The notes under the pieces were generated by a model, which was not told where the DNA came from, did not search any database, and was given only the letters and a program-made list of their open reading frames with translations. Position numbers and translations under genes: made by a program. A DNA stretch of 64,000 nucleotides from Candidatus Kapaibacterium sp. (lineage in GTDB: Bacteria; Bacteroidota; Ignavibacteria; Kapaibacteriales; Kapaibacteriaceae): assembly GCA_044224925.1 (NCBI GenBank), contig JBGAJM010000001.1, positions 113,021 to 177,020 on the forward strand, read 5' to 3'. This document shows, one piece after another, positions 1,878 to 54,083 of the stretch (its first letter is position 1; every line of letters starts with the position of its first letter).

Positions 1878-1886
1878 GGCGCCAAT

Positions 1887-4039: not shown

Positions 4040-4092
4040 GATTTCGGCTCCTGTTGTCCGAAATTACGATGAGGAGATGAAAGGCGCATAAC

Positions 4093-6369
4093 TTAATGTA
4101 CGACGTGAACCATGCTGTTGGTCGTCATGTTTCCAACTTGTACACGTAACAGGTACAAACCTGAAGGCAATTGATGCACATCAATGATGTGTTGATGTGT
4201 ACCAGCATCACGTGAGTTCTCGACAGAATTCTGCACCTCATTGCCCGTGACGTCGATCAATCGAAACGTCACACTACTGCGTTCTTGTAGCTGGTAGGTG
4301 ATCGTTGTAGATGACGCACATGGCGCAGGGCTAATGGAAAGGACGTTGCATGCCTGAACTCGTTGCGATGACTCTGGATGATCACTGTGTACTGACGTGA
4401 TCGAAGACATGCTTTGCTTCCAGATGTGCTCGCCATCAGTGAAGAGCTGTGAAGATCCATTGAGACGTGGCAAATACGCGACTGAATTCGCGCCAGGTTC
4501 TGAAACGACAGGCGATACCCGCCAAGTTCTACCATGATCCAAAGACAGAACCACCGCACCATGTGAAGTGCCAGAAGCTAATATGGTATCCCCTTCGGCG
4601 CTGATACATTCTAGAACACCGGTTAGGGGGTAGTCGATGCCGGGAGGGTGGACCGGTGTCCACGAGGCACCCATATCGGTGGACCGAAGGTATCCCGGTG
4701 TACTTGACATTGCAAGCAACTGCCATGTACCATTTGTGTCGTGAACGGCATTGATACCAGACAATCCAAGGCCATTGTAACCCGATGGTTCGGACCACTT
4801 GGTGCCATTGTTGGTAGAACGTACTACAACGCCGTTATAACAGGCGAACAAATTCGTTTCACCGGCATTGGTACGCAGGGCCACCATACCGGTCACAAAG
4901 CCTGCAAAGTCCGATCCCTTGTTTTCCAAGATCCATGTTGTGCCGTAGTCGGTGCTTCTGAAAATGACCATACCATATGCGCTAACGTAAACATCGGTGC
5001 CCCCACCGCCATCGCCCACAGTCGATATGCACTGAATGAAATTGATCGACGCTACTGGTTCCCACGTATCGCCATTTGTGCCACTGCGAAACACTTTGTC
5101 ATTGGTAGTTGCTAGGAGTATTTCTCCACCATTTGCTGTGCTGCAAACGGCGACACTTCGAAGACTCGTTGCGAAGTACGGAGCATGAAGATCGGTCCAA
5201 TGCGCTCCATCATCGTCACTACGAAACAATCCAAAGCCGTACACATGCATAAAGACACTAGGCCCGTTCACACCCTTTTGTGATGTGGCCATAAGGCGGT
5301 ATCCGATCACTTCAAAACCGCTATTCACCTTTAACCATGTTTTTCCTGCATCTGATGAGTGTAAGACCCCGCCTGCAGCATACAGGCCTGCATATATGTG
5401 CTGCTCACTCGTGGAATCCGTGCTTGCGCATATTCGAAAAATGGCCTGGCCAGAATTCACCCTTTGCACCAACTCCCAACTTGCTCCAAGGTCGGTTGAG
5501 CGGACGAGGCCGGCCCCGGTGCCTGCAATGATGCAGGTTCTTCCATCACGATCTGCTGTGATAACGATGGAAAACACCTGCAAGTCGTCAAGACCATCAT
5601 TCGACTTTGTCCACGTCACTCCATCATCATCCGACAGGTAGAATCCTGCAACATAGGTGCCCAGAACGTGCCTGAATCTGTTCGACCCCAGCTTGACCAT
5701 GGCAGATGCATTTACAGCGTTGCTTGGGATGCCAACGCATCGCGACCATGTGGCACCGCTATTCGTCGACCGAAAAGCTCCATACGTGCCAGTACATGCA
5801 TAGACAATCAATCCGCCTACGCCGTCCGGATAGCCGAACAGTTTGGTCCCGTAGAGACCACCTGAAGGTATGTCCAAATAACGCCAATGAGCGCCGTCAT
5901 CAAATGATTGAAATGCTGCGCCCGAGTCCAAACCGCAAAACAGTGTTCGCTCGAACGGTGAACGCTGAGCTACACTTACAGAGTGAACACCCATATTCAT
6001 TAACTGAATATCAACCGGACTGCTTCTACCATCACGCACAACATGATGTTCAATTCCACCTTCAGAGGCTACAAAGAGTTGAACATCACCATCAGCATCT
6101 AAAAAGGTGCATATGTCATTCCGAGTAACACTGCGGTTAGGCAGGCTGAGATCCCTCCATGACGATCCGTTATCTGAAGAACGAAATACCTTGCTATTTA
6201 TCAGAGCAAAGACAGATCCACCGGCTTCTGATATCGAGCGAACTGAGGCACCCTCTATGCTTTCGCATTTCATCCATTGTGCCCGCAAAGGTTGCACGGA
6301 CCAGAACAACGGTACAAGAAGCCAAAGAAAGAGAAGAGGTAAGTTGCGAGGTTGAGGGCAGGTGTTCAT
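4093..6369 (-). CDS. secreted BNR/Asp-box repeat (sortilin/Ycf48-like) protein with a T9SS C-terminal sorting domain
   Basis: Many S-x-D-x-G-x-T-W Asp-box motifs (SDDDGVTW, SDAGKTW, STDYGTTW, STNNGTKW, STDMGASW, SLDHGRTW). I chose the internal start at M40 (MNTCPQPRNLPLLFLWLLVPLFWSVQPLRAQ), which is followed by a signal peptide. The track ORF extends to 6486. The C-terminal about 80 aa have a Por/T9SS CTD pattern. Confidence 0.7.
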   Translation of the reverse strand: MNTCPQPRNLPLLFLWLLVPLFWSVQPLRAQWMKCESIEGASVRSISEAGGSVFALINSKVFRSSDNGSSWRDLSLPNRSVTRNDICTFLDADGDVQLFVASEGGIEHHVVRDGRSSPVDIQLMNMGVHSVSVAQRSPFERTLFCGLDSGAAFQSFDDGAHWRYLDIPSGGLYGTKLFGYPDGVGGLIVYACTGTYGAFRSTNSGATWSRCVGIPSNAVNASAMVKLGSNRFRHVLGTYVAGFYLSDDDGVTWTKSNDGLDDLQVFSIVITADRDGRTCIIAGTGAGLVRSTDLGASWELVQRVNSGQAIFRICASTDSTSEQHIYAGLYAAGGVLHSSDAGKTWLKVNSGFEVIGYRLMATSQKGVNGPSVFMHVYGFGLFRSDDDGAHWTDLHAPYFATSLRSVAVCSTANGGEILLATTNDKVFRSGTNGDTWEPVASINFIQCISTVGDGGGGTDVYVSAYGMVIFRSTDYGTTWILENKGSDFAGFVTGMVALRTNAGETNLFACYNGVVVRSTNNGTKWSEPSGYNGLGLSGINAVHDTNGTWQLLAMSSTPGYLRSTDMGASWTPVHPPGIDYPLTGVLECISAEGDTILASGTSHGAVVLSLDHGRTWRVSPVVSEPGANSVAYLPRLNGSSQLFTDGEHIWKQSMSSITSVHSDHPESSQRVQACNVLSISPAPCASSTTITYQLQERSSVTFRLIDVTGNEVQNSVENSRDAGTHQHIIDVHQLPSGLYLLRVQVGNMTTNSMVHVVH

Positions 6370-6433
6370 GGAACATCCTATGCGAAAAGTAACTGAGGAC
6401 TGTTCGCAACATAGGTCGTTGAGAGGTATAATG

Positions 6434-6584
6434 AACCTTAGCAAAACCTTAGCAAATAGGGAATCCGCACAATCAGACCACTTCATACTTCACGCAACTG
6501 ACCACAGGATGATAGAAGGTGTGATTCATGTAAGCTTAATGAAAGTTGGTGTGTGCCAAGGCTGCTAAGGTTCTGCTAAGGTTA
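6434..6584. promoter_or_regulatory. inverted pair of tandem 11-bp repeats flanking about 105 bp, in a divergent intergenic region
   Basis: Left arm AACCTTAGCAAAACCTTAGCAAA at about 6434-6456. Right arm CTGCTAAGGTTCTGCTAAGGTT at about 6563-6584, which is the reverse complement AACCTTAGCAGAACCTTAGCAG and matches the left arm at about 21 of 23 positions. The element lies between the divergent BNR-protein gene and the DUF1800 gene. Confidence 0.4.
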
Positions 6585-6604
6585 TCCGTAGGTGCGGAAG
6601 CGCT

Positions 6605-8164
6605 ATGATTGTACCGCGACGCAGACGAATCACCTGTTCACTTGAAGTTCTCCATATGCTGGATGTGTTTGACGAGACGAAAGACGGACCGTGGGGCCGG
6701 CCGCACGCAGCTCACCTGTTACGACGGATGATGATCGGCGCCACGCCGCTCGAGATCACTCGGGCTGTTGCCGAAGGCAGAGAGCGCACGATCGACCGAT
6801 TACTGCGACCGTGGGAAGTGCCAATGGATCACGTGGCGCAGCTCGTGGATGGCGATGTGATGGCAGAGATACAGCCGATCGACATTCCCGAGTACCGACA
6901 GTTCTTCGATACAAAGGACCGGCGCTACATCGAGACCGTGCAATGGTGGGCTGGCATCATGATCCGTGGTGAGTTCTCTGCACAGGAGCGTCTCACGCTA
7001 TGGTGGCACATGTGCATCCCTTCGTCGTTCAACGGATCGCATTTCGCAGAGAACATCATCGATCAGAACAAGACCATGCGACAGCACTGTATGGGCAATG
7101 TGCGGACGATGGTGGACGAGCTCGTGCATGGGATGGCGCTGCAGATCTATCTCAGCGGAACGGAGAATGTCTGGAAGCCGGACTACGATGGGATCAATGA
7201 GAACCTCGCGAGGGAACTTCTCGAGTTGTTCTTGCTGGGTCGGCGAGGATCGAACAACGAGCCAAACTATACGCAGTACGACATAACACAGATCGCCCGA
7301 GCGCTCAGCGGCCTCCGCATCCAGGAGTATCATCGTGTGGATGACAAGGGCATCGACTATCTCTATCGCAAGCGGCGGTTGCAATTCCGCGAAGATCATT
7401 GGGACCCGCAAGAGAAGACGATCTTCGGTCATCAAGGGGCTTTCAAGAGCACAGACGTCTTGGACATCCTCTTCACGACCAAGCAACAACAGATCGCCTA
7501 CCATATCTGTTCACGATGGTATCAGAGCTTTGTCAACGAAGTGCTTGCAGATGACGTTGTCGCAGCCATGGCAGACATTCTCCTTGCGAACGACATGAAC
7601 ATCGAACCCGTGATCCGTGCAGTCCTCAACAGTTCGCACTTCTACGAAGCATCTAATCGCATGTCCATTTCCACCCCTGCCTCCATTACCTTCCTTGGTC
7701 AGTTACGATACGCCGCCGTTGGATACATCCCGGATCTGGATGATGTGGAAGGTGGCAAGGAGGAAGACCTCTTCATTCGCCTTCGGAGTATGGGACAATG
7801 CATGTACTATCCGCCCAATGTGTCGGGATGGCCCACCGGCATGAGCACGGTATCGGGAAGTAGCATAGCGTGGCGACTGGAACAGCATCGCAGACTATGG
7901 CAAGGGAAGTTGTACTTCAAAGACTATCCGGGGGGACGTCAGGTGTATCCCATTGAAAGCGCCGACTTCAATGAAATGTACGGACGTGAGGTGTCCATTA
8001 AAGACCTTGCCGCCCTTGCAACCGTCGATCTCCTTGGCTTGAGTGAAGCAGAAGCGAAGCAAGCGGCGGAAGAGCTGTGCGCAGATCTCCCGGGAGATCA
8101 GGATGCTGCACTGCGACAGATCATGACGGCGGTAACGACTTCACCACGCATGTTGTTCTCATGA
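6605..8164 (+). CDS. DUF1800 family protein
   Basis: Contains the HLLRRMMIGATP motif typical of DUF1800 (H-L-L-R-R-x-G-F-G). It sits immediately upstream of a DUF1501 gene with an 8-bp gap, the canonical DUF1800/DUF1501 pairing. The true start may be the internal Met at about 6656. Confidence 0.8.
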   Translation: MIVPRRRRITCSLEVLHMLDVFDETKDGPWGRPHAAHLLRRMMIGATPLEITRAVAEGRERTIDRLLRPWEVPMDHVAQLVDGDVMAEIQPIDIPEYRQFFDTKDRRYIETVQWWAGIMIRGEFSAQERLTLWWHMCIPSSFNGSHFAENIIDQNKTMRQHCMGNVRTMVDELVHGMALQIYLSGTENVWKPDYDGINENLARELLELFLLGRRGSNNEPNYTQYDITQIARALSGLRIQEYHRVDDKGIDYLYRKRRLQFREDHWDPQEKTIFGHQGAFKSTDVLDILFTTKQQQIAYHICSRWYQSFVNEVLADDVVAAMADILLANDMNIEPVIRAVLNSSHFYEASNRMSISTPASITFLGQLRYAAVGYIPDLDDVEGGKEEDLFIRLRSMGQCMYYPPNVSGWPTGMSTVSGSSIAWRLEQHRRLWQGKLYFKDYPGGRQVYPIESADFNEMYGREVSIKDLAALATVDLLGLSEAEAKQAAEELCADLPGDQDAALRQIMTAVTTSPRMLFS

Positions 8165-8171
8165 GGAGACC

Positions 8172-9686
8172 ATGAAACGCAGACAGTTTCTCACATCGGT
8201 AGGGAAGGCAGGATTGGTGCTGCCGTGCATGCAGTCGGGTATGATGCGTGCATTTGCCGCACCAACGGATCAGATGGGACACCTTGCAACCGAGAGTCTC
8301 GGCGGCGAACGGATACTCGTCGTCCTGCGCATGTTCGGTGGGAACGATGGCTTGAACACCATCGTGCCGATTCACGATGACGAATACTATCGTATCCGTG
8401 GAGGAGGTCGACCATATGATCTCTCGATCCCGCGAGAACGCGTACTCCCCATACCCGATGTTGATGGCTATGGCATGCATCCATCGATGGCGCCCCTCAT
8501 GGAGTTGTACAACGAAGGGTCTGTTGCAATTGTGCAAGGGGTTGGCTATCCGAACATGGACCTGTCGCACTTTCGAGGCACGGACATATGGCTGTCGGCA
8601 AGTGATGCGAACGTCTATCAGCAATCGGGGTGGTTAGGACGAATGTTCGACATGGAGAAGTTCGAGAACGAGACGGATCCGTATGCGATAGAGTACGGCG
8701 ATGCTGTTGGGAGGTTGCTGCATGGAGCTCACGGCGTACATGGTCATACCTATCACGCCTCACATCAGTTTGCGGGAAATGAGGACGTACGAGGATTGAA
8801 CGACGGTCATATCGGCGCGAACGATTTCTCGTCGCGGTTCCAGCGGGCGCAAGTTCACGGTCGGTCGATCGAGCGGGCACTTTCTCTTGTCACACAACAG
8901 ACGCGGCCGTATGACAAGGACTCGCCACTAGCCGGCTCGTTGAGAACAACATCACGACTCATTCGCGCGGGTATGTCGACGCAGGTATACATCATCCACG
9001 CCGGTCAGTTCGATACGCATCACCGTCAGCAAGAGGTCCACGCCCAACAACTCGACGAGCTCTTTCAAGGCGTCCATTCGTTCTATCGCGAGTTGCAAGA
9101 TGCAGGCGATGCAGATCGCGTATGTGTGCTTGTCATCAGTGAGTTCGGACGTCGCGTAGAGCCCACCCAAACAGGCACCGACCACGGCACGGCCGCGCCC
9201 GTCTTTCTCATAGGAGGGAAGGTGCAGGGCGGCATGCACGGAACGGCACCGAGTGTCACCGAACTCGATGCTGACGGAAACCTGCTATGGAACGTCGACT
9301 TCCGACAGATCTATTCCTCGATCCTACGTCAATGGTTCCAAGCCTCACCATCAGCCATAGACGAAGTGATCCTACCACGACTCTTTCAACCGCTCCCACT
9401 CTTTGCAGTGTCGAGTCAGCCACGTCATCCATTCGAGCTCACACCCATTCCGTGCAGTGGTCACCTCACGGTCAACGGCACCGCCCTCACGCCGACGAGC
9501 GCATCGGCCGTCATTCGCGACATCAATGGCCGTCAGGTCCTGCAGACCACACTCGATCTTCAAGTGGCAACGCGCATCCCGTTGCCGTCGCTACCCTCCG
9601 GCGTTTACGTTCTCGACATCACAACAACCTCTGCACACTCTGCACCAATGCAGTACCGCACGGCTTTCCCGGTGGTGCGGGTGTGA
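8172..9686 (+). CDS. DUF1501 family protein with a twin-arginine signal and a T9SS C-terminal sorting domain
   Basis: N-terminus MKRRQFLTSVGKAGLVLP carries the Tat consensus RRxFL. FGGNDGLNT motif present. C-terminal about 80 aa (VIRDINGRQVLQ...LPSGVYVLDIT) match the T9SS CTD pattern. Confidence 0.85.
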   Translation: MKRRQFLTSVGKAGLVLPCMQSGMMRAFAAPTDQMGHLATESLGGERILVVLRMFGGNDGLNTIVPIHDDEYYRIRGGGRPYDLSIPRERVLPIPDVDGYGMHPSMAPLMELYNEGSVAIVQGVGYPNMDLSHFRGTDIWLSASDANVYQQSGWLGRMFDMEKFENETDPYAIEYGDAVGRLLHGAHGVHGHTYHASHQFAGNEDVRGLNDGHIGANDFSSRFQRAQVHGRSIERALSLVTQQTRPYDKDSPLAGSLRTTSRLIRAGMSTQVYIIHAGQFDTHHRQQEVHAQQLDELFQGVHSFYRELQDAGDADRVCVLVISEFGRRVEPTQTGTDHGTAAPVFLIGGKVQGGMHGTAPSVTELDADGNLLWNVDFRQIYSSILRQWFQASPSAIDEVILPRLFQPLPLFAVSSQPRHPFELTPIPCSGHLTVNGTALTPTSASAVIRDINGRQVLQTTLDLQVATRIPLPSLPSGVYVLDITTTSAHSAPMQYRTAFPVVRV

Positions 9687-9882
9687 ATGGTCCTTTACAA
9701 ACTGTCAACATCATTGGGTGAAGATCAGAATGAAGTTATTCTATGCTCAATAGTAAATTGTATTCATGTAAGCGTTGGGTACGGAGTTAAGTGGTCTCAC
9801 TAACGCGGTATCGTGTGGACAATGGACGCGGAATCTCCCAGGCAACGCCAATGAGTGATCAAATAGTTGAATCGGGGAAAGA

Positions 9883-10968
9883 ATGAGTTCCAATGTTGAA
9901 TCAATCGTTGTAAGGCTACTCGAAGATATTGACACCAATTTTGGGTCAAGTCGCGAGGCGCTAGATTTACTCAAAGAGAATACTCTGCTTGATGACGAGG
10001 TGTTTCTGCTTGAGGCAGGTCTGCTTGTTAGGCGAATAATTCATGGTAACAAAAGTGAAGCTATTCGGGTAATAGAACATTCAAACATTGTTCAACAGAC
10101 AAGTAACATGTCGTTTGTGTATGGATGCTTACTGAAATATGAAAATGGCAAGACCGATTACGATGAGCTTCTGACCTTGCAAAGAAACCTGAGAAATCAG
10201 TCTGGTTTCACCCCAATTGAGCGACGATTGACGGTGATCGCTTATGTTCTGGCACTTTTAAGCCTACAATTGCCAATCGTTTGTGTCAACTATTTGAGAC
10301 GGAATGAGGTCGACTCAAGTTGCTGTGTAATCCGACTTCTCTCGTGCGAAGTGTATTTTCAACTGTCGGAGTACAGCGTCCTTTCCGAGGAGTTGAAAAC
10401 TTTGCAACCCGGAGTTGGGGCGGATTGGCAGGCCCGAATCGCTGAATTGGCACTTATTAGGAGTGGGAATCTGGAAGATGCTGTAGCAATGGTGTCAAGT
10501 AAAAGCGATACGGGGCTGCCATTGAACGATGACGTTCTAATTGAGTATTGTATCATAAGCTATCGTCAACATTACTTCAACCCAAGATTTGAAGCATTAG
10601 TTGAATCTAGCCCATATGTAAGTAAACATGCACTCCAACTTTACAAAGCGGTGTGCCAATTCACTCAAGGGAATGTGAAGGATGGTCTCAACATACTTCG
10701 GGAAGTACTTGCGAAAATTGACGACTATCTCGTTCAGACTATGTATTTCGAAAATAGCGCAAAGGTGAATGGAGCAACAGTGCTAGCACGCGAAATAGCG
10801 GATTATAAAGAGCTGTACGGAGAAGATGTTTTTTGGTTTGCCGTAGTATGCGCCATTGAATCGGCGCCTGGCACGCTTGTTAACCCCTTCCTTGAAGATC
10901 CAAGCCTTCCATACGATCAGACCGAGTTTTTCACATACTACAGTATCATTAGTCAGGCACTTGGCTGA
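9883..10968 (+). CDS. hypothetical protein (AT-rich island ORF, likely all-alpha)
   Basis: 361-aa ORF in a markedly AT-richer stretch. Codon usage differs from the flanking genes. No motif recognised. Confidence 0.5.
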   Translation: MSSNVESIVVRLLEDIDTNFGSSREALDLLKENTLLDDEVFLLEAGLLVRRIIHGNKSEAIRVIEHSNIVQQTSNMSFVYGCLLKYENGKTDYDELLTLQRNLRNQSGFTPIERRLTVIAYVLALLSLQLPIVCVNYLRRNEVDSSCCVIRLLSCEVYFQLSEYSVLSEELKTLQPGVGADWQARIAELALIRSGNLEDAVAMVSSKSDTGLPLNDDVLIEYCIISYRQHYFNPRFEALVESSPYVSKHALQLYKAVCQFTQGNVKDGLNILREVLAKIDDYLVQTMYFENSAKVNGATVLAREIADYKELYGEDVFWFAVVCAIESAPGTLVNPFLEDPSLPYDQTEFFTYYSIISQALG

Positions 10969-11172
10969 GTGGAGATACCGCCGAATGTGACCACGAGATT
11001 CCGCTACAATGATTCGATTTAGACAGCACTCACATGTCAAAGCAACTGCAATATAGATCACGGTTTAGCCAATCAAGAAACGACATCGAATGGCGGTCAA
11101 CAGCGTGCGGAAAGAAGTGGTCATGGTGCAGGAATCTCCAATGAGGCGGACTTTGTTGAAAGGAGAGTTGCC

Positions 11173-11733
11173 GTGAGTTCTAAACTGAGAATATTCGAGC
11201 CTATTGTTGCCGATGGATGCGAGATTTGCCATCCAATGGATTCTGATGATTTTAACGTTTTTGCCAGGTTGATCAATTGTGTGTCTAGAGTATCCACCTG
11301 GAGGCCCATTCCGATGAAACTAGTTTCTCAAGACGAGGGTGTTGAAGCTTCATACTCAGACTCCCCTTGGTTGGGGGAGCATACACTAATATTTAGGACC
11401 CCATTGAAAGAGGCTCTGGGTGCGCTATTGATGGCGAATGGTGAACTTCTCCCGTTAGTCTGTTCTGAAGCTGATCTCGTTGTTTTCAACGCTACGAGAA
11501 TGATCGACGCACTCAATGAAGAAGAATCAACTTTGTCGCGATTTAGTGGAGGACAGATCTACTGGATCAAGCGCTATGTGTTTCGTCCGGACGTAGTCGA
11601 CGGTGTTGACATATTCAAGATACCCAACCTTACTGTTAGCCCCACGTTTGTAAGCGAACGATTTGTGGATACTTGGAATGCTTGTGGACTCGTTGGCCTT
11701 GACTTTCTACCTGTTTGGGAACCGCGTGGTTGA
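11173..11733 (+). CDS. putative polymorphic-toxin immunity protein (DUF1629 / Imm11-like)
   Basis: 186-aa ORF. The C-terminal segment IFKIPNLTVSPTFVSERFVDTWNACGLVGLDFLPVW resembles, from memory, the conserved C-terminus of DUF1629/Imm11 immunity proteins. It lies in the AT-rich island. Confidence 0.45.
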   Translation: MSSKLRIFEPIVADGCEICHPMDSDDFNVFARLINCVSRVSTWRPIPMKLVSQDEGVEASYSDSPWLGEHTLIFRTPLKEALGALLMANGELLPLVCSEADLVVFNATRMIDALNEEESTLSRFSGGQIYWIKRYVFRPDVVDGVDIFKIPNLTVSPTFVSERFVDTWNACGLVGLDFLPVWEPRG

Positions 11734-11920
11734 TCGATAGCCATTGCGGCAAGCAGGATTGTTCAGAAACTGTCAATGATCCAAAGATTCCCGATACTCA
11801 TGAAAGCACCACCATCACGTGATCAATCGAGGGCCTTTTGCCATGTAAACCTCCATCCGTAATATGAGAAATGAAGGCCATTGGATTGAAAATCAAACGG
11901 CGGAAATAACAAGGTGACTA

Positions 11921-12193
11921 ATGAGGAATACCCAACGAAGTGTCAGAGTTGAGTTTGTTGGAGACATCAATACTGAGTATCCATATCTGGAGGTCTTTTT
12001 GAATGAAGGTGTTGGGCCTTTTATAGAGATAGGTGTATCACCAAGTAAGGAATTGTATTTCAAGTATTGGGCCACTGACGAGGAGATTGTGCTATGTGCG
12101 GATGATATTGAGTATTTGTTATCTGAAGCAAGGGACTTTTTACCCTATGTCCTCAAGAATGAGGAGGATAATCGCCGTCACTATGGGTTGTGA
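11921..12193 (+). CDS. small hypothetical protein (island ORF, 90 aa)
   Basis: ORF with island-typical composition, on the same strand as its neighbours. No recognisable motif. Confidence 0.35.
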   Translation: MRNTQRSVRVEFVGDINTEYPYLEVFLNEGVGPFIEIGVSPSKELYFKYWATDEEIVLCADDIEYLLSEARDFLPYVLKNEEDNRRHYGL

Positions 12194-12335
12194 CTAGAGC
12201 CTCCGTACACGAAGATCAGCTCAATCCATGGGCAGTTGGCAAAGAGTGATGTAGGGTGCGATACTTCCTAGCTCATTGCTAGATTGCATTTGACTGAACG
12301 TCGAAGCGCAGTACTATATATTCACAGTGGTGTGA

Positions 12336-12938
12336 ATGTTAGTGCGCACACGACACGAAATCGACAATATCGGCTCGCCCGTCATAATAGTGAGAAAGAG
12401 AAACATGGATCAGTTAATTGACATAATGACCGACGTCGATCACTTACTGACTCGGCACGATTTTCAATTGCAAGAGCGATCGGACTTCCTCCTTTCGTAT
12501 GTCAAGAACAATTTGGAAATACGAATTGGTCACAATGTACGAGAGAACTCAAACATCTTTTTCTATGGTGTGCAAGGCTGCACTGCATTTGAGATCACTG
12601 ATCGACTCATTAAAGAGTGCTTTAAATCTGATGTTAGAGTTAATGATCTCACCCTGCCAAAGTTTGCTGAGAATTTGTATGTGTTGTTAAGTGGTGCAGG
12701 AAAAGTGCTCTTGGATGGTGATATAGACACTGTTCTTGGACTTTTACAATATCAAAGGCGAATAGCGACCGAGTACAGCAATGAGTTACTTCATCTTCAA
12801 TACGACCGTATTGTAGAGGAAGCATGGAGGGCAAGGGAGTATCAGAAAGTCATTGAGTATTTGTTGAAAATAGGCGAAGTCAATATGACAAGATCACAGG
12901 GGCTAAAGTTAGAAATAGCCAGACGCAGGGTCGAGTGA
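12336..12938 (+). CDS. hypothetical protein (island ORF, possible immunity-type protein)
   Basis: 200-aa ORF in the AT-rich island. An alternative start at the internal Met (MDQLIDIM) at about 12405 is possible. Confidence 0.45.
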   Translation: MLVRTRHEIDNIGSPVIIVRKRNMDQLIDIMTDVDHLLTRHDFQLQERSDFLLSYVKNNLEIRIGHNVRENSNIFFYGVQGCTAFEITDRLIKECFKSDVRVNDLTLPKFAENLYVLLSGAGKVLLDGDIDTVLGLLQYQRRIATEYSNELLHLQYDRIVEEAWRAREYQKVIEYLLKIGEVNMTRSQGLKLEIARRRVE

Positions 12939-13232
12939 AGCATCGTTTGCAAAGTGATCGTGTGCGACCGTATACGCCATCAGCCAAGATAGGACACACA
13001 AGAGAGCTCATGTTGAGTGAATTATGCCATCTCAGCATCGCATACGAATTCATCGCACTTCGTCAGAGAGTGCTCGTAAAGGCGTATGAAAGGCACGTTG
13101 CTCACGATAGGAGTCGACATCAACAAGACGGAGAATGGTCAAATGTTGTCGTAAATTCATGAGCACTACGCTTCCAGTGATCGTTGGCAGGTTCCGATCT
13201 CACTCGGTGTTTAGTCGAATATCACCACTTCT

Positions 13233-13499
13233 TTGGGTTACAGACTATCTGAACCAAAGTCTTTACTCACCGACAACTATATTGCCGGGAATTCAATGTG
13301 CTTTAAACAAATGTTGGCAATCGGACAAATGCAGTCAGATTATAGTCTGCGTAATCCGCCTGGAACGGTTTGGCACCACCCAGGCGACAATCCTGATGTG
13401 ATGCGTCTTTTGCGAGTGGAAGAGCTTGCCAACCTACATATACAACCGGTGCTTCATCCGAACGGCGCCGGTGGATACAGGAAAATCTATGTCCCCTGA
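13233..13499 (+). CDS. orphan polymorphic-toxin C-terminal module: WHH-type HNH/EndoVII-fold nuclease domain (no N-terminal delivery region)
   Basis: 88-aa ORF with a TTG start. It contains GTVWHHPGDNPDVMRLLRVEELANLHIQPVLHPNGAGG, which gives a WHH motif followed by Asn/His residues consistent with a beta-beta-alpha-Me fold. The frame opens only about 18 nt upstream (stop at 13212-13214). Its stop TGA at 13497-13499 overlaps the ATG at 13489 of the next gene. Confidence 0.5.
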   Translation: MGYRLSEPKSLLTDNYIAGNSMCFKQMLAIGQMQSDYSLRNPPGTVWHHPGDNPDVMRLLRVEELANLHIQPVLHPNGAGGYRKIYVP

Positions 13500-14112
13500 T
13501 CTCATTCGCAAGCAGTCAATTGAGACGGCATCGCGTCTCGGTTATTCAACTAACCACGCGTTGCCGCTCTTAGACGATGTTCAAAACTTGAGAACGATTG
13601 ATGAATCCGTCAACCGCCTCCTGTGCCTGAATGCAGTGGCTGCATGCGCGTACGGCTTCGATAGGCACAAGGCCGTGGAATGGCTGCGGCAGGAAGGCGT
13701 ATTTGATGAACTGGCGACATCAGAACGTCGGTTTATTGAGAACAGTGACGGTGATCCCATTCGCTTTCAAGTTCAGGTCGAAGGGTTATGGGCATTAGCG
13801 TGGGCACTTGGTATTGTGCCTCAACTTGACTTCGGGGAGTACTGTGACGACAATTTCGTCATCCTGATGCCGAATATAAGAAGCGGAGAAACAAGCGACG
13901 TCCTACGCTCGAAGATCAATCCTCGCACAACCGTCGAAGTCCTTGCGGCCTGTGATCTTGCGTATTGTCTTCATTGGGCGGCCAGAGAGGCTCTACTAAC
14001 CGGAGGCAAACTGCCTGGAGATGTGCAACTGTACGTCATCGAAGAAAGAAGGCGCATGCTAGAATGGTTAATTGGTGAAGAGGAATGGGATGAAGTAACA
14101 CTCGATACATAG
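13489..14112 (+). CDS. putative cognate immunity protein for the WHH toxin module
   Basis: ATG at 13489 overlaps the toxin stop (ATGTCCCCTGA). 207 aa. The track ORF starts earlier, at a TTG at 13426. No family assigned. Confidence 0.5.
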   Translation: MSPDLIRKQSIETASRLGYSTNHALPLLDDVQNLRTIDESVNRLLCLNAVAACAYGFDRHKAVEWLRQEGVFDELATSERRFIENSDGDPIRFQVQVEGLWALAWALGIVPQLDFGEYCDDNFVILMPNIRSGETSDVLRSKINPRTTVEVLAACDLAYCLHWAAREALLTGGKLPGDVQLYVIEERRRMLEWLIGEEEWDEVTLDT

Positions 14113-14488
14113 TCTGACGTTGCAATGTGCAGCGACGTCGAGCCGCTATTGTGTGAGGCAATGTCATTTAACTTAGACAACTGTCGATACGTCATTCAGT
14201 TAAGTGTCGCCACTTTCATTTATGCGCACAGGTAAGTCTCCAGGCCGGTCGCCCTCCATGGTAACTATGGATTGAATGAGATAGGGCAAAGGTCGATAGA
14301 TTGGCCAACACACTTCACCACGTAACACTTCGCCACGTGATGCATCGTGTAATTCTTCAATGCGCATTTCTAGATTTCATCTGCCTGGACGTTGATATGC
14401 AGTACTACGTGGTCATTGTGAGGCGGAAGATCGTTGGCATATGACGCAGAGTCGAGCTACTAGAACCCGAACAAAGAGGAAAAGACTG

Positions 14489-14995
14489 ATGAACAGAATG
14501 ATGAACAAGATGTTGTTCGTTCTCACAATTGCGGCTTTCTTCCCTCGAGAAGTAGAAACCTGCTCTTGTGTCGGTGGTGTGCCAAATATATCTAGATCGC
14601 TGAGCAACTTTGAAACAGCATTCATCGGAGTATGCCGTTCTTCAGAGGTGGATACCTTGATCACTTACATTCGAAAACCATTTCGCGATACGATCAAAAG
14701 CGTCGTGTCAACCTCACAGTTTGTCGTTAAGTATGGACTCAAGAATAGTCGGAGAATGGACAACATCACCGTCAGGTCACCGATTGAGAGTAATGCATGT
14801 GGCGTGCACTTTACGGTCGGTGGGTCGTACATTGTTTTCGGTGACGATACAAGGAGTCGCATGCGATATAGCCTGAATGACACAACCGTATTCGTTCTAG
14901 AGGTCAGCAAGTGCAGTGCGACTCAAGTCACCACGAAATCAGCGGTTGATACGTTGCGGAGGCTCACGGGAATGAAGATTGCATTTCCGAAATGA
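14489..14995 (+). CDS. hypothetical secreted protein (signal peptide MNRMMNKMLFVLTIAAFF)
   Basis: ORF 14441-14995, with a hydrophobic signal-like segment after the internal Met at 14489. Last ORF of the island before the tRNA-Lys terminator. Confidence 0.45.
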   Translation: MNRMMNKMLFVLTIAAFFPREVETCSCVGGVPNISRSLSNFETAFIGVCRSSEVDTLITYIRKPFRDTIKSVVSTSQFVVKYGLKNSRRMDNITVRSPIESNACGVHFTVGGSYIVFGDDTRSRMRYSLNDTTVFVLEVSKCSATQVTTKSAVDTLRRLTGMKIAFPK

Positions 14996-15236
14996 CATCA
15001 GATGAAGGTCTCTTCTTTTGTTGATGGCAAAGACCATCTCGGCCAACGAACCATCAGTCGAACTTTGTATTGTAGTATAGGGAGCAAACCCAAGACGAGG
15101 AAGTGATCGATAAGATCGAGCACATTGATTGGTGTGTGACATCTCGCATGTTCGTTGTTTCGCGCGTTCCTTCCAGAGTGACATGCAAACGGACTCTACG
15201 AAGTCAGGCCGTATTCGGAAGGTGCAGCGACAACGC

Positions 15237-15272
15237 AAAAAGCCGCACCAACAATGTTGATGCGGCTTTTCT
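15237..15272. terminator. bidirectional rho-independent terminator hairpin (AAAAA-GCCGCA-loop-TGCGGC-TTTT)
   Basis: A perfect 6-bp GC-rich stem flanked by an A-run upstream and a T-run downstream. It lies directly 3' of tRNA-Lys on the minus strand, and the + strand ORF 14441..14995 (last island ORF) ends about 240 nt upstream of it. Confidence 0.6.
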
Positions 15273-15275
15273 CTG

Positions 15276-15348
15276 TGACCCCGTTGGGACTCGAACCCAA
15301 GACCCTTTGATTAAAAGTCAAATGCTCTACCAGCTGAGCTACGGGATC
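15276..15348 (-). tRNA. tRNA-Lys (anticodon UUU)
   Basis: The reverse complement GATCCCGTAGCTCAGCTGGTAGAGCATTTGACTTTTAATCAAAGGGTCTTGGGTTCGAGTCCCAACGGGGTCA folds as a cloverleaf: 7-bp acceptor stem, D-loop AGCTGGTA, anticodon stem TTTGA/TCAAA with loop CTTTTAA, T-loop TTCGAGT. It closely resembles canonical bacterial tRNA-Lys. CCA is not encoded. Confidence 0.85.
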
Positions 15349-15392
15349 ATCCTTGTCAAAAAACAAGACTGCAAAGATACGAACATTGACCC

Positions 15393-17306
15393 TTAGCGCA
15401 GGGCGTGACGCATCACACTGTCGCTGAGGAAGTCCTTCGTGACGGCGGCGATGCCGGCGGCATCGAGTTGCAGGTCTGCATGGAGCTCTTCTTGTGTGCC
15501 GTGCTCGACGAAGACATCGGGGATGCCGTGAATGCGGAGATCGCAAGCGTGGTCGTGTCCTTGCGCGAGATGCTCGGCAACGGCAGAGCCGAAGCCGGCC
15601 TCGATCTGTCCGTCTTCGACGGTGATGATGCGACCGATGCGACGTGCCACATCGTCGATCATGGCTGTGTCCAGCGGCTTGACAAAACGTGCATTGATGA
15701 CCTCTGCCTTGATCCCTTCCGCCTCCAACAACTCCGCCGCCTTCATGGCATGCGAGACCATCTTACCGATGGCCACGATGGCAACATCGGTGCCGCTGCG
15801 AAGCGTCTCGCTCTTGCCGATCTCGACGGGTTGCATGGGACGCATGGGAATGCCCACGCCATTCCCGCGTGGATAGCGGATGGCAATGGGTCCGGCCGTA
15901 TACGAATACACGGCCGTGTAGAGCATGTCGCGCAGTTCCTGCTCATCCTTTGGTGCCATCACCACCATGCCCTGAATGGTGCGCAGGTAGCCGAGGTCGA
16001 GGACGCCGTGGTGAGTGGGACCGTCAGCGCCGACAAGACCCGATCGATCGAGCGCGAACACCACATGTAGGTGCTGAATGGCACAGTCGTGCACGATGTG
16101 ATCATAGGCACGTTGCAGGAAGGAACTGTAGATGGCCACCACGGGAACGATGCCCTGTGTGGCCAGACCGGCGGCGAAGGTGACGCCATGCCCTTCGGCA
16201 ATGCCCACGTCGTAGACCTTGTCCGGGAAATGCTTCTGCAGAATGTCGAGTCCCGTTCCATCCGGCATTGCCGCCGTGATGCCCACGACCTTCTTGTTCG
16301 TGGAACAGATCTCCACCATGGCCTCGCCGAACACCTTCTGATACGTGGGTGGCGGTGCAACGGCCGGTGGCTTGCTCAGGGACTTGCCCGTGATCTTGTC
16401 CACCTTGCCGATGGCGTGGAGGAATTGACTGTCTCGCTCGGCCGGACCGTAGCCCTTGCCCTTTTGCGTGATGGTGTGCAGGAGAATGGGACCCTTCATC
16501 TCGCGAATGCCTTGCAGCATCTTGACGAGCTGATTGATGTTGTGTCCGTTCACCGGACCGAAGTAGCGGAAGCCCAAGGCCTCGAACATCATGCCCGGCG
16601 TGATCACGGCCTTCACACCGCTTTCCATGCGATGAGCAATGCCGCGAATGCGATCGCCAAGGTTGTCCATCTTGTCGGTGACGCCAAGGATGCTTTCGCG
16701 CAGACGTCGACCGGTGGGTGAGGCGAAGATCTCGCTGAAGTAGTTCGACAAGGCCCATACGTTGGGTGCGATGGACATGTTATTGTCGTTGAGTACGACG
16801 AGGATGTCGCTCTTCAACACACCGCAATTGTTCATGGCCTCATACGCAAGACCACCCGTCATGGCACCATCGCCGATGACGGCCACTACCTTGTAGTTCT
16901 CCTTGAGCTGATCGCGTGCGGCGGCCATCCCAAGGGCGGCACTGATGGATGTGCTGGCATGTCCTGCACCGAAGGCATCGTAATCGCTTTCGGTGATCTT
17001 GAGAAAGCCGGAGAGGCCGTTCTTTTGACGGATGGACGGGAGCTGATCGCGCCGACCCGTGAGGATCTTGTGCGGATAGGCCTGATGCCCTGTGTCGAAC
17101 ACGATCTTGTCGTGCGGCGTGTTGTACACGTAGTGCAATGCCGTGGTGAGCTCGACCGTACCGAGGCCCGCTCCGAAGTGTCCGCCAACCTTGGTGATCG
17201 TGTCCACCAAGCATTCCCGTACTTCATTGGCCACATCACGCAATGCCGTTTCCGGTAAGGCGCGAAGGGCGGCAGGGGAATCGATGAGATCGAGATACCT
17301 ATACAC
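15393..17306 (-). CDS. dxs: 1-deoxy-D-xylulose-5-phosphate synthase
   Basis: 637 aa with the characteristic DXS N-terminus (DLIDSPAALRALPETALRDVANEVRE...GGHFGAGLGTVELT, DKIVFDTGHQAYPHKILTGRR), a TPP-binding region and a transketolase-like C-terminal domain. Confidence 0.9.
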   Translation of the reverse strand: MYRYLDLIDSPAALRALPETALRDVANEVRECLVDTITKVGGHFGAGLGTVELTTALHYVYNTPHDKIVFDTGHQAYPHKILTGRRDQLPSIRQKNGLSGFLKITESDYDAFGAGHASTSISAALGMAAARDQLKENYKVVAVIGDGAMTGGLAYEAMNNCGVLKSDILVVLNDNNMSIAPNVWALSNYFSEIFASPTGRRLRESILGVTDKMDNLGDRIRGIAHRMESGVKAVITPGMMFEALGFRYFGPVNGHNINQLVKMLQGIREMKGPILLHTITQKGKGYGPAERDSQFLHAIGKVDKITGKSLSKPPAVAPPPTYQKVFGEAMVEICSTNKKVVGITAAMPDGTGLDILQKHFPDKVYDVGIAEGHGVTFAAGLATQGIVPVVAIYSSFLQRAYDHIVHDCAIQHLHVVFALDRSGLVGADGPTHHGVLDLGYLRTIQGMVVMAPKDEQELRDMLYTAVYSYTAGPIAIRYPRGNGVGIPMRPMQPVEIGKSETLRSGTDVAIVAIGKMVSHAMKAAELLEAEGIKAEVINARFVKPLDTAMIDDVARRIGRIITVEDGQIEAGFGSAVAEHLAQGHDHACDLRIHGIPDVFVEHGTQEELHADLQLDAAGIAAVTKDFLSDSVMRHALR

Positions 17307-17333
17307 GTGAGGTCCGTAGGAAGTGCAGAGAGA

Positions 17334-19316
17334 TCAGCGACGTGGTGTTTCCACGATCACTTGAACGGTGCGCGAGAGTTGACGTCCGATGGGCATGTCG
17401 TTGGTGAAGATCTGTCGTGTCTCACCAACGCCCGATGCTGTGATGCTCGCGTCCTTTGCCCGAGATGCTAAGAACACGCGAACTGACTCTGCACGTTCCC
17501 GAGAGAGCTTGGCGTTGTAGTCGTCGTTGCCGATCCGGTCCGTATAGCCGATGATGGCCACCTTCGAATTGGACTTGATGGAGGGCAACACCATTTGTTC
17601 GAGGATGCGTTGATTGTCTTCGTTGATGGTGGACTTGTCGAAGTCGAAGAGGATGAGCGAGTACTTGTCGATGGTGCGGTCCGGAAGATTCTCGGTGCGC
17701 TTCTTCACGCTCGAGATATAGTCCACGGGGATCGAGCCACTCACACGTTGCGTGTCGCCTTCGACGGTCGACGCTGTGAACTCATAGTCGATGGGCACTT
17801 GCGCGGCCGAGAGCTCATTTGGCTTGATGGCCCATGTAAGCGCGCCCGGACGTCCTGCGCCGCGCAGGTCACGCAATGTGCGACCTGCTTGACCGATGTG
17901 CATCTGCCAACCGTTGAGCGAGTCCGACGTGGTGATCTTCGTGTGGAAGGCGATCACGTCGGGTGTTGCAATGCGCTGATTGTCGGCCGTGATCGTGAGC
18001 GGCGTGAGTACATCGGGCACGTTGCTCCTGAATTCGATGCGACGGTTCTCGGCAACACCGTCGGGATCGTTGCTGGTCGAGGGTCGTGCAGGAAGGGCAG
18101 ATGTGGTCGTGCTGATCCTGTCGGCCGCGATGTTGAAGGCCGTCACGAGATACGTCTTGGCAAAGTTCGCGCGTTGCGCTGCCAGGTCCTTCGTCTTCCC
18201 TTCCGCCTTGCCATCGGTGGTGCCGATGATGGTGAGCGTTGCCTGCGGATACTTGCGCATCCGTGCGCCAATGATGTTGAGCGTATTGCGATTCACTTCG
18301 ATGGCATCGAGCGGAAGTCCTTCGGGATTGAACTCGCCCTTCTCGGGGGCGATGCCGAGCATCTGCATGTCATCGGACGGTTCGCTCTTGTTCTCTTCGC
18401 AGAACACGTACGGGATCATGGGGAACATTTCGTTGTAGCGAACATCTTCGACGTTCACCACGGAAACGGGCTGCTCGCGACCGTCGCGATCGTAGGCCAC
18501 GATCTTTTCCATTTCCACCGAGAAGCCGCGCTTCGCTTCGGACGGCGGCTCGACAGGAGGGGCAATGGCGAAGAAGATGTTCACGCTCAGGCGGATCTGG
18601 CCGACCTTCCACGGGGTGAAGTTCGGGTCGGACGAGACGTTCGTGAGGGGCAGACGATACGTGAGCTCAGGCTGCAGATAGAACTTCTCGGAGAGCTTCA
18701 TGGTGTATCCCAGACCAAGCATCAGCGCGGCGCGCATGGTGGTGTTCGGGACCTCCCGTCCGTCCGGCAGATTGAGTGTCACGGCCGAGTCGCCATTGGG
18801 CAGCGACTTCTTATAGGCCATCGTTTGCGAGAGACTTGACGAAAGGGGAATGCCGAATTCGAGACCAACGAGCGGATGCAGACTGATACCCGAGAAGAGA
18901 TTGTAGAACTCCACACCGGGCGTGAACTCCAGAAGCGACGTGGATCCGGAGATGCTGTGCTGGATGGTGCCGCCATCTGTGGTGTTCTGTGTGGCCGTGC
19001 TGGACGAGTTGATGTTGTTGTAGCCGAGGCGACCGGTGAAGTGAATCGTCGAGGTGATCGGGAAGCCACCGATCAGACCGAAGGTCCCCGCCAACGTCGT
19101 GCTTCCATTCGCAAAGGAGAGCGAGTCGTTGACGTGCGATCCGAGTTGACCGCTCGTGAAATACGGGGAATTCCAGATCTTGCCGTTCATCGAGCTCATG
19201 TCGATCCCGAGTCCGCCATACAAGCCGATGCGTGCGGGGGGAATGACGTTTTCTTGAGCGATGGAGGACCGGACAAAGCAGAGAAGGGCCGCGAGGGCAA
19301 GGAGGGTTCGATTCAT
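17334..19316 (-). CDS. outer-membrane protein: N-terminal beta-barrel plus two OmpA-like peptidoglycan-binding domains
   Basis: Internal start at MNRTLLALAALLCFVRSSIAQ (signal peptide). The track ORF is N-terminally extended. Two OmpA-family segments are present (IIGTTDGKAEG...NRRIEF and IIGYTDRIGNDDYNAKLSRERAESV). Paralog of 22285..24288. Confidence 0.75.
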   Translation of the reverse strand: MNRTLLALAALLCFVRSSIAQENVIPPARIGLYGGLGIDMSSMNGKIWNSPYFTSGQLGSHVNDSLSFANGSTTLAGTFGLIGGFPITSTIHFTGRLGYNNINSSSTATQNTTDGGTIQHSISGSTSLLEFTPGVEFYNLFSGISLHPLVGLEFGIPLSSSLSQTMAYKKSLPNGDSAVTLNLPDGREVPNTTMRAALMLGLGYTMKLSEKFYLQPELTYRLPLTNVSSDPNFTPWKVGQIRLSVNIFFAIAPPVEPPSEAKRGFSVEMEKIVAYDRDGREQPVSVVNVEDVRYNEMFPMIPYVFCEENKSEPSDDMQMLGIAPEKGEFNPEGLPLDAIEVNRNTLNIIGARMRKYPQATLTIIGTTDGKAEGKTKDLAAQRANFAKTYLVTAFNIAADRISTTTSALPARPSTSNDPDGVAENRRIEFRSNVPDVLTPLTITADNQRIATPDVIAFHTKITTSDSLNGWQMHIGQAGRTLRDLRGAGRPGALTWAIKPNELSAAQVPIDYEFTASTVEGDTQRVSGSIPVDYISSVKKRTENLPDRTIDKYSLILFDFDKSTINEDNQRILEQMVLPSIKSNSKVAIIGYTDRIGNDDYNAKLSRERAESVRVFLASRAKDASITASGVGETRQIFTNDMPIGRQLSRTVQVIVETPRR

Positions 19317-19389
19317 GATGCAAAAATACCTTTTTCGCCGCTTCTGCGTCAGTGGAACATTCTTGGCATTCATTCGTTGGACGCGCACC

Positions 19390-20073
19390 ATGAACAACAT
19401 ATCCTCGCTCCTCGCCACCGTTCTTCTCTCATCCGTTCTTGTTGCAATGCCCATGCGTGCAGCAGACGGCGGATCGCCCGAAGGATTGAAGATCGGCGCA
19501 ACATTCGGTGTTGCCACCCCCAGCGATAAGATCGCCGACGTCTACGATTTCAACAACTCGGTCTCCGGCATGTACTCCGATGCATCGGCCATTGGCATGA
19601 GCCTCGGCGCCCGCTTCCGCTATGGAATGACGGAGCATCTGAGCTTCTGTGGCGGGATCGCCTACAACCGGTTCAATAACTCCGCACAAACGGCCACCAT
19701 CAGTGGCACCGGACAGACCTTTGTGGTGAACACGGCCACGAACATCATTCCGATCCATGCCGGTTTCGATTACTTCCTTCTCTCGTCGCTCATCCGTCCC
19801 TATGTTGGTGCAGAGCTCATGTACACGTATACGAGCACGACGATGATCTCCTCCACGGACGAATCCATTTTGACGTCGATCCTTGTTCCCGGACAGGAAC
19901 TCGAACCCAAGGTGTCGCGCTTTGGCGCAGGCCTGAGCGCAGGACTGGAACTGAACCTTGGTGGCCTGGCCCCGTTCTTCGAAGTGAAGTATGTGATGAG
20001 CAATCTTGTGGGTAAGACCACAGGAGAACCGGAGCGCAACTATCTGAACGTTACGCTCGGTCTGATGTTCTGA
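19390..20073 (+). CDS. small outer-membrane beta-barrel protein (OmpW/OmpA-TM-like)
   Basis: Signal peptide MNNISSLLATVLLSSVLVAMPMRA. Alternating amphipathic strands. C-terminal Phe (TLGLMF) is typical of OMP barrels. The start was moved to the internal Met. Confidence 0.55.
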   Translation: MNNISSLLATVLLSSVLVAMPMRAADGGSPEGLKIGATFGVATPSDKIADVYDFNNSVSGMYSDASAIGMSLGARFRYGMTEHLSFCGGIAYNRFNNSAQTATISGTGQTFVVNTATNIIPIHAGFDYFLLSSLIRPYVGAELMYTYTSTTMISSTDESILTSILVPGQELEPKVSRFGAGLSAGLELNLGGLAPFFEVKYVMSNLVGKTTGEPERNYLNVTLGLMF

Positions 20074-21508: not shown

Positions 21509-21544
21509 AGCGCCCAAGATAGATGCATTTTTGTAGATTATCAC

Positions 21545-22258: not shown

Positions 22259-22284
22259 GTGCGCAGTAGCACTCGGAATCCTCC

Positions 22285-24288: not shown

Positions 24289-24306
24289 ACTCACTATCCA
24301 AAGGGT

Positions 24307-25878: not shown

Positions 25879-25898
25879 TAACCGAGATGTGGTGAACC

Positions 25899-54055: not shown

Positions 54056-54083
54056 GTTACCGAGATTTCACCGAGGGCATTCC

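Follow-up and report, generated by a model that had tools for sequence, protein, structure and literature searches.

What is the AT-rich stretch that lies between a DUF1501 gene and a tRNA-Lys gene in the 64-kb window analysed here (the whole stretch of DNA under study, from a host that the relatedness of its loci marks as Kapaibacteria-like)? We consider it probable that we are looking at one portion, low in GC, of a chromosomal array of orphan cassettes for interbacterial immunity, which is hypervariable and runs from NadA/DUF1501 to tRNA-Lys. Close relatives have gained, lost, and rearranged its cassettes, and the observations behind this reading are the families to which 3 of its open reading frames (ORFs) belong, namely O2, O5, and O6, the Rhs origin of the O5 domain, the pairing of O5 with a DUF4272 gene, the contrast in selection between those two genes, the mosaic structure of the interval, and a repeat that is specific to the array. 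An initial annotation of this DNA had already proposed an array of orphan toxin and immunity cassettes, perhaps with undescribed families among them, and profile searches with hidden Markov models, the Rhs parent, and the comparison of related loci all support that proposal.

The compositional contrast that first set the island apart is borne out on computation. The GC content of 9690-15237 is 45.7% versus 57.5% for the remaining window, with every 500-nt bin between 10001 and 15000 at 0.42-0.52 and both flanks at 0.55-0.61. This is the lowest-GC 5.5-kb stretch of the window, in which all such stretches average 56.4% (standard deviation 3.2%) and the second-lowest non-overlapping one stands at 52.6%. 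Codon usage differs in the same way: GC at third codon positions (GC3) is 0.43-0.53 in the 7 island ORFs, while housekeeping genes and those in the flanks have 0.61-0.74. As had been described, all 7 ORFs are on the plus strand with long gaps between them, measured here at 142-376 nt.

Profile searches confirmed the DUF1629/Imm11-like protein that had been proposed from the sequence (O2; 39.6 bits, above the 22.1 cut-off, with the match spanning the last 83 of the profile's 194 positions) and identified the gene coupled to the putative toxin tip, O6, as a member of DUF4272, the start of which overlaps the O5 stop by 11 nt. O5 itself belongs to a family (O5 and 10 homologues) of which all 11 members match the WHH nuclease profile (best E 2.3e-4) and 5 match Colicin-DNase. 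The signature NPPGTVWHHP...QPxLHPxGxGG is invariant throughout, including the histidines of WHH and LHP, and a conserved histidine in an “EH” motif is replaced by leucine in the window O5 but retained in all other members of the family. The window keeps only the last ~57-67 codons of a ~155-aa toxin domain, so that about 60% of the domain is missing; stop codons lie upstream of O5, and neither remnants of the domain in other frames nor an Rhs core were found in the 64 kb. The WHH-type toxin tip of the initial annotation thus stands at the level of the family, while its presumed intactness does not, since what the window holds is a truncated remnant. We interpret O5 as a decaying, non-functional toxin stub of an Rhs-CT (C-terminal)/immunity module.

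A full-length toxin with an O5-type tip exists in a locus from another metagenome, L094, which encodes a 2306-aa RHS-repeat protein carrying the O5-type domain at its C-terminus, after a ...DPMGEG core motif, and followed by a DUF4272 gene that starts 11 nt before the Rhs stop. Residues 2250-2306 of this protein are 58% identical to O5 (E 3e-21), and its tip is 50-63% identical to longer members of the family across 109-159 aa. Adjacent O5-like and DUF4272 genes with an 11-nt overlap were found in 5 of 5 contexts: the window, L082, L083/84, L090, and L094. In L083/84, the pair stands behind a giant RCC1/DUF6531/Tox-ART-HYD1 (Rhs) toxin and its DUF6881 gene, and no region shared between that adjacent toxin and the N-terminus of the L083 orphan P0006 was found; in L090, from Sphingosinicella terrae, the O5-like gene is an unannotated ORF.

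The two genes of the pair are under different selection. Relative to L082, the ratio of nonsynonymous to synonymous substitution rates (dN/dS) is 0.18 for DUF4272, 0.71 for O5, 0.55 for Imm11, and 0.03-0.12 for flanking genes. Because DUF4272 is under purifying selection where O5 is close to neutral, and because the coupling of the two genes is conserved, O6 is, on this sequence evidence, likely to be the immunity protein of the O5-type toxin. The searchable literature yielded no mention of “DUF4272”; the partner that Zhang et al. (2012) list for Tox-WHH is Imm37, not DUF4272, and they describe Imm11 as immunity to Tox-AHH/HNH/SHH, common in polyimmunity loci (PMC3482391). O5-O6 might instead be a self-contained toxin-antitoxin addiction module, with the other ORFs unrelated to it; it is a small coupled gene pair, and most O5 homologues recovered by a word-indexed search are short (67-154 aa). 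This explanation is extremely unlikely in our judgement, as the O5 domain is the tip of a 2306-aa protein where it follows the Rhs core motif in L094, an O5-type domain also follows the Rhs toxin locus in L083, and the window copy has lost most of its domain and evolves almost neutrally.

Comparison of the same interval in related loci gives a shuffled array in L082, a different array in L093, and another island in L001. In L082 (dxs 97.8% and DUF1501 93% identical), the interval between DUF1501 and tRNA-Lys is occupied by an O5-like gene, DUF4272, Imm11, and three unrelated ORFs, in that order, and nucleotide homology to the window is limited to the flanking sequence (left of 9727 and right of 15275), the Imm11 cassette at 11141-11834 (86.5% nucleotide identity, at another array position in L082), and the O5-O6 cassette at 13268-14165, so that two cassettes are shared in swapped order. 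L093 matches the window up to 4083, where NadA ends, and beyond that point has nothing but the O7 cassette (14308-15106) of this array; it is without BNR758, DUF1800, and DUF1501, having a HATPase_c_3 gene and other ORFs after NadA. In L006, from a related species (dxs 83%), co-oriented ORFs stand beside tRNA-Lys; one of them is an Rhs_assc_core module (TIGR03696, E 5e-17), and the next encodes a small membrane protein. Two observations on these arrays may be added. The first cassette after NadA in L093 (6190-8328) encodes a 712-aa HATPase_c_3 protein with a weak match to SduA_C (Shedu), which suggests that array slots can hold defence-type genes too, and L006 carries CCTTGCAGGCGA three times in tandem at 7213-7260, directly after tRNA-Lys.

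The position of the island beside a tRNA raises the possibility of a decayed integrative island, brought in at the 3' end of tRNA-Lys by a tyrosine integrase, that has lost this integrase and its attachment (att) sequences and in which toxin and immunity genes are incidental cargo. The island abuts the 3' side of the tRNA and is compositionally foreign, many related contigs end just past tRNA-Lys, and Bacteroides AID-1 elements integrate at a tRNA-Lys (bioRxiv 10.1101/471110). At the same site, the closest genome, L001 (metagenome-assembled genome SZAS-90), which matches window 15237-27307 at 93% identity until the homology stops exactly at 15237, has another low-GC island (43-46% GC, L001 12072-17900) that encodes a Phage_integrase (tyrosine) gene along with an XRE-type helix-turn-helix (HTH) protein, a Peptidase_M78 (ImmA/IrrE-like) protein, a Beta_protein, and several orphan ORFs, followed by regulator-like genes; it looks like a defence or prophage-like element. 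The dxs-tRNA-Lys linkage is present in about 46 of 80 related loci, and the region past tRNA-Lys differs between genera. Against an integrative island, the border lies past the terminator hairpin, ~37 nt beyond the tRNA and not within it, and no copy of the tRNA 3' end was found in the window, L001, or L082. The reordering of two cassettes in L082 and the sharing of another with L093 argue for cassette-wise turnover and not for a single insertion, the array repeat described below also occurs left of DUF1800, and the L001 integrase is 5 kb from the tRNA in an island in which that repeat was not found. We therefore regard a decayed integrative island as distinctly unlikely. The initial annotation was right that the island adjoins the tRNA, with the right border placed here at 15237, past the tRNA terminator and outside the tRNA itself; no att repeats were found that would support classical tRNA-targeted integration of this island. 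Within a coding region, 17-18 nt at 19894-19911 match the T-arm region of tRNA-Lys (GGAACTCGAACCCAAGG), probably by chance.

The absence of a recombinase or Rhs gene, which had also been pointed out initially, holds for everything searched. No recombinase was matched among the 7 island ORFs (Pfam, NCBIfam), tblastn with the L001 integrase gave no match across the 64-kb window, and neither an integrase nor an Rhs gene is present in the island or among the 10 large window ORFs tested, which are housekeeping or secreted. The window assembly is not chimeric, because every junction is spanned, at 100% identity, by Logan contigs of two independent samples (window 1-11155, 10945-11867, and 11853-24987). 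Two Logan contigs from SRR28480386, L081 and L086, stop at window 11155 and 11853, within ~20 nt of the edges of the Imm11 cassette, which suggests that members of that community differ in this cassette or carry repeats of it, and the contigs of 15 of the 31 closest dxs loci (the L002-L031 set) end less than 1 kb past tRNA-Lys, a point at which assemblies break. Both kinds of contig end are compatible with population-level heterogeneity, of which they are not proof.

If cassettes are exchanged one by one, then the sequences between them are of particular interest, and here the initial statement that the island has no direct repeat proved wrong in one respect. The spacers hold a repeated element of ~160-180 nt with 11-nt terminal inverted repeats, which accounts for much of the long gaps. 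The element was traced from weak blastn matches between spacers and searched for with an nhmmer profile built from four training copies (including 6453-6611) and iterated once (alignment A2). It is present in five window spacers (Table 1) and in the arrays of L082, L093, L092, and L006, and no further copy was found in the 64-kb window, in 1.4 Mb of related loci, or in non-Kapaibacteria toxin loci. Non-training matches overall reach E 4e-15 to 1e-22 at best, among them a copy at L093 9812-9942 (E 1e-16) and, after iteration, one at L006 7450-7605 (E 5e-22), 240 nt from tRNA-Lys. Before iteration, the window matches outside the training set span 12192-12316, 14338-14444, 11143-11019 (minus strand), and 9737-9821. 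An Rfam scan of 9000-16000 at E <= 1 returned nothing beyond the tRNA and left the island copies unmatched. Full copies are bounded by GGAGATTCCGC...GCGGAATCTCC, a pair that is perfect in L082 at 8950 and 9118, and ATTCCGC/GCGGAAT motifs recur within them. In the partial copy after DUF1501, the terminal repeat on the right (GCGGAATCTCC, 9828-9838) is perfect; the inverted copy ends in GGAGATaCCGC (10971; again at 10994) and cAGGAATCTCC (11129); and the copy upstream of O4 carries TTGACT-N16-TACTAT at 12290-12317. The pattern AACTGTCRAY, which was set post hoc and is part of the larger element, has 3 of 3 exact matches in the island.

Table 1. Features of the variable zone and its borders, in window coordinates.
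Feature	Coordinates	Strand	Evidence or remark
Lower-GC block with BNR/Sortilin-like gene (4093-6369), type IX secretion system (T9SS) sorting domain	4084-6515	-	Pfam; GC3 0.48
Full-length element copy 1, immediately 5' of DUF1800	6453-6611	+	nhmmer E 1e-30; training copy
DUF1800	6605-8164	+	Pfam
DUF1501 with Por_Secre_tail domain	8172-9686	+	Pfam
29-nt border unit after DUF1501 stop	9697-9727	+	recurs 5' of O5-O6 cassette
Partial element, 3' two thirds	9736-9838	+	nhmmer E 7.9e-4, then 8e-13 iterated; non-training
O1, 361 aa, helical, no family	9883-10968	+	missing from L082
Inverted element copy	10971-11139	-	nhmmer E 3e-6, then 1e-20 iterated; non-training
O2, Imm11 (DUF1629, PF07791)	11173-11733	+	Pfam E 4.4e-10
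O3, 90 aa, no family	11921-12193	+	missing from L082
Element copy	12192-12347	+	nhmmer E 4.3e-15; non-training
O4, 200 aa, no family; real start perhaps ATG 12405	12336-12938	+	missing from L082
29-nt unit at 5' edge of O5-O6 cassette	13267-13295	+	tandem in L082
O5, truncated 3' remnant, WHH-like HNH/EndoVII nuclease toxin domain	13296-13499	+	open frame from TTG 13233
O6, DUF4272 (PF14094)	13489-14112	+	149 bits, full length, E 1.2e-43
Element copy, 5' part degenerate, head of O7 cassette	14313-14443	+	nhmmer E 8.6e-12; non-training
O7, secreted, 168 aa (ORF from 14441)	14489-14995	+	signal peptide, N-terminal CSC, four conserved Cys
tRNA-Lys terminator-like hairpin, conserved right border	15238-15270	-	L001 homology begins at 15237
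tRNA-Lys(ttt)	15275-15348	-	3' end toward island

A repeat between co-oriented ORFs that mostly lack recognisable promoters invites comparison with an integron-type array that has no integrase (a cluster of attC sites lacking integron integrases, CALIN), in which the spacers would be attC sites; the elements do carry terminal inverted repeats. RNAalifold on ten copies, however, gave 0 consensus pairs, and single-copy folding z-scores are weak (-0.9 to -2.1), with consistent pairing at the 11-12-nt ends only. The element is conserved in sequence over 160-180 nt, whereas attC sites are conserved in structure, and an integrase was found neither by tblastn with that of L001 nor among the 10 large window ORFs. 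For reference, attC sites measure ~57-141 nt. An integron-type array seems to us extremely unlikely, and attC identity was rejected for the element on the strength of the 0 consensus pairs and the weak z-scores. A simple insertion of a miniature inverted-repeat transposable element (MITE) finds no support, no target-site duplications having been seen by eye at the element ends, but may still be the origin of the copies. A more adventurous proposal, unlikely as we see it, is that an undescribed cassette system operates through the ~170-nt element. The element would then be either the site of a recombinase encoded elsewhere that captures and reorders immunity cassettes, making the array a sequence-based counterpart of the integron in Kapaibacteria, or an invertible promoter by which single immunity genes are switched on and off. 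The copy before the Imm11 cassette differs in orientation between the two arrays: forward in L082, inverted here.

The distribution of the element also moves the left limit of the array. The element-punctuated variable zone runs from 4084, at the NadA end, to 15237 and is thus wider than the island from 9690 onward, because an element copy precedes DUF1800 and an L082 breakpoint lies inside that copy. The block with the BNR/Sortilin-like gene is missing from both L082 and L093, with blastn breakpoints at 4083/4084 and 6515/6516, the right one being the breakpoint inside the element copy. The DUF1800-DUF1501 block (6605-9686) has host-like GC and is bracketed by array elements, and we liken it to a cassette because it is kept in L082 (91% identity) and missing from L093. 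A similar BNR/Por_Secre_tail gene stands near an O7 homologue in L092. A second, paralogous DUF1800/DUF1501 pair is found at 24307-27473, 9 kb past dxs; it is ~25-34% identical to the first pair and kept in many relatives, which suggests that the array-adjacent pair is an accessory copy. A metagenome scan with DUF1501 returned one locus, L085, which is non-syntenic.

The remaining ORFs, O1, O3, O4, and O7, are given putative roles from their position in the array alone. A search of 1.84 billion representative proteins recovered only 2 relatives of O1; for O7, only 4 relatives were found. At 90% identity, each of the 7 island proteins is a singleton or falls in a two-member cluster. Single searches of PDB sequences with O1, O4, and O6 gave nothing meaningful, and an O5-family profile had no match among PDB sequences. 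O7 has a dN/dS of 0.22-0.41 and a weak match to Pfam NTR (E 0.028), and AlphaFold2 on its 4 sequences gave a mean predicted local distance difference test (pLDDT) score of 31.8, with no usable model. Elsewhere in the window, 54000-57758 codes for a Matrixin (M10) protease with PKD domains, and it is conceivable that O7 is an inhibitor resembling tissue inhibitors of metalloproteinases (TIMP).

With four ORFs assigned by position, it also has to be asked whether the tRNA is a hotspot for anti-phage defence and the ORFs of the island are unrecognised defence genes. The low GC and variability of the stretch are typical of defence islands, the HTH, Peptidase_M78, and Beta_protein genes of L001 occupy the same site, and the L093 array holds the HATPase_c_3 protein with its weak SduA_C match. 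PADLOC, on the other hand, gave only two noise-level matches on the 7 ORFs (E 0.0025 and 0.0037), and 3 of the 3 assignable ORFs belong to polymorphic-toxin biology, which makes a defence island very unlikely.

An array of orphan immunity cassettes has several known counterparts, none of which it matches in full. What defines an rAID-1 system is a XerD-like recombinase at the 5' end together with short, low-GC genes in one orientation and repeats in the spacers between them (bioRxiv 10.1101/471110; PMC12247911), with criteria of a XerD-like recombinase at least 44% identical to BF9343_RS08045, at least 2 co-directional downstream genes, and GC of at most 41%. Like them, the array described here has co-directional genes (seven), repetitive intergenic sequences, orphan immunity genes that belong to several unrelated families, and a make-up that differs from strain to strain. 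Unlike them, it has no XerD-like recombinase, none having been found at its 5' side or elsewhere in the 64 kb, its GC content, though 12 points below that of the genome, exceeds the threshold set for Bacteroidales, its Kapaibacteria-like host is environmental, a toxin stub lies within the array, and the repeat is 160-180 nt long with 11-nt inverted repeats. The polyimmunity loci of Zhang et al. (2012) are described as never interrupted by toxin cassettes, as having short intergenic distances, and as often lying beside XerC/D (PMC3482391). The array shares with these loci the same-strand tandem arrangement of unrelated immunity families, Imm11 included, and a variable content (window, L082, L093, and L001), and it departs from them in the O5 toxin remnant inside it, the gaps of 142-376 nt, and the lack of an adjacent recombinase.

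Orphan rhs-CT/immunity modules offer a third comparison. O5-O6 is homologous to the tip and immunity gene of the L094 Rhs toxin, the O5 family occurs downstream in the L083 Rhs locus, and the L006 array contains an Rhs_assc_core module; in contrast to such modules, there is no parent rhs gene upstream in the 64-kb window, most neighbouring cassettes are without a toxin fragment, and the O5 stub is without the shared region that permits tip swapping. The AID-1 integrative and conjugative elements (ICEs) of Bacteroides resemble the island in being an immunity cluster at a tRNA-Lys (bioRxiv 10.1101/471110) and differ from it in that neither ICE genes, nor an integrase, nor att repeats are present here and the border lies beyond the tRNA terminator. 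From tRNA-integrated islands in general, it differs in having neither an integrase nor direct repeats derived from the tRNA 3' end in the window. The array is best labelled as an rAID/polyimmunity array of a variant kind, without a recombinase and with Rhs orphan modules mixed in. What is new in it is a candidate pairing between DUF4272 and a WHH-like Rhs-CT, along with a repeat for which Rfam has no matching family.

If the stretch is an array of orphan immunity cassettes, then each cassette product would neutralise a toxin delivered by a competitor. Imm11 would counter AHH/HNH/SHH-type nucleases, and DUF4272 would counter a WHH-like nuclease at the C-terminus of an Rhs toxin; DUF4272 and the four unassigned ORFs would together protect against incoming toxins. 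The comparison of loci shows O5 to be the stub that remained after capture of an Rhs-CT/immunity module. The element would give each cassette a promoter or leader, act as a substrate for shuffling, or do both, with the shuffling itself being either homologous or carried out by a recombinase coded elsewhere.

A number of observations weigh against this interpretation. Taken alone, O5 falls below the gathering cut-off of Pfam WHH (PF14414; 12.5 bits against 25.1, E 0.12), and AlphaFold2 on the 11 sequences of its family gave an unusable model (pLDDT 48.5). DUF4272 also occurs solitary, with no O5-like gene, at L088/L089 6001-6624 and L091 6001-6639, and in one case the gene immediately before it, in a neighbourhood of cell-wall genes, codes for a MurD-like ligase. 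DUF4272 may therefore have another role, unrelated to immunity; the solitary genes also fit, without proving, an immunity gene that survives its toxin. For O1, O3, O4, and O7, searches with PADLOC, Pfam, and NCBIfam gave only noise and no immunity family. Promoter-like sites are not enriched (15 found versus 10.7 +/- 3.4 expected), and the share of cassette breakpoints at or within ~25 nt of an element, about half, is no excess over what is expected for two intergenic features; a role of the element as promoter, leader, or recombination substrate is something we infer. No delivery system or full-length toxin of the host was found in the 64-kb window, and the functions discussed here are predictions from sequences alone.

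Work on orphan-immunity arrays has centred on the Bacteroidales of the gut (rAID/AID), along with a small number of other lineages. The present example would extend such arrays to an uncultured environmental lineage of Bacteroidota/Chlorobi, in a form that has no adjacent recombinase and a repeat of its own. In this setting, the unannotated Pfam family DUF4272 gains a testable role as the immunity partner of a divergent WHH-like Rhs nuclease, and the repeat would provide a concrete handle on how these arrays are assembled or regulated.

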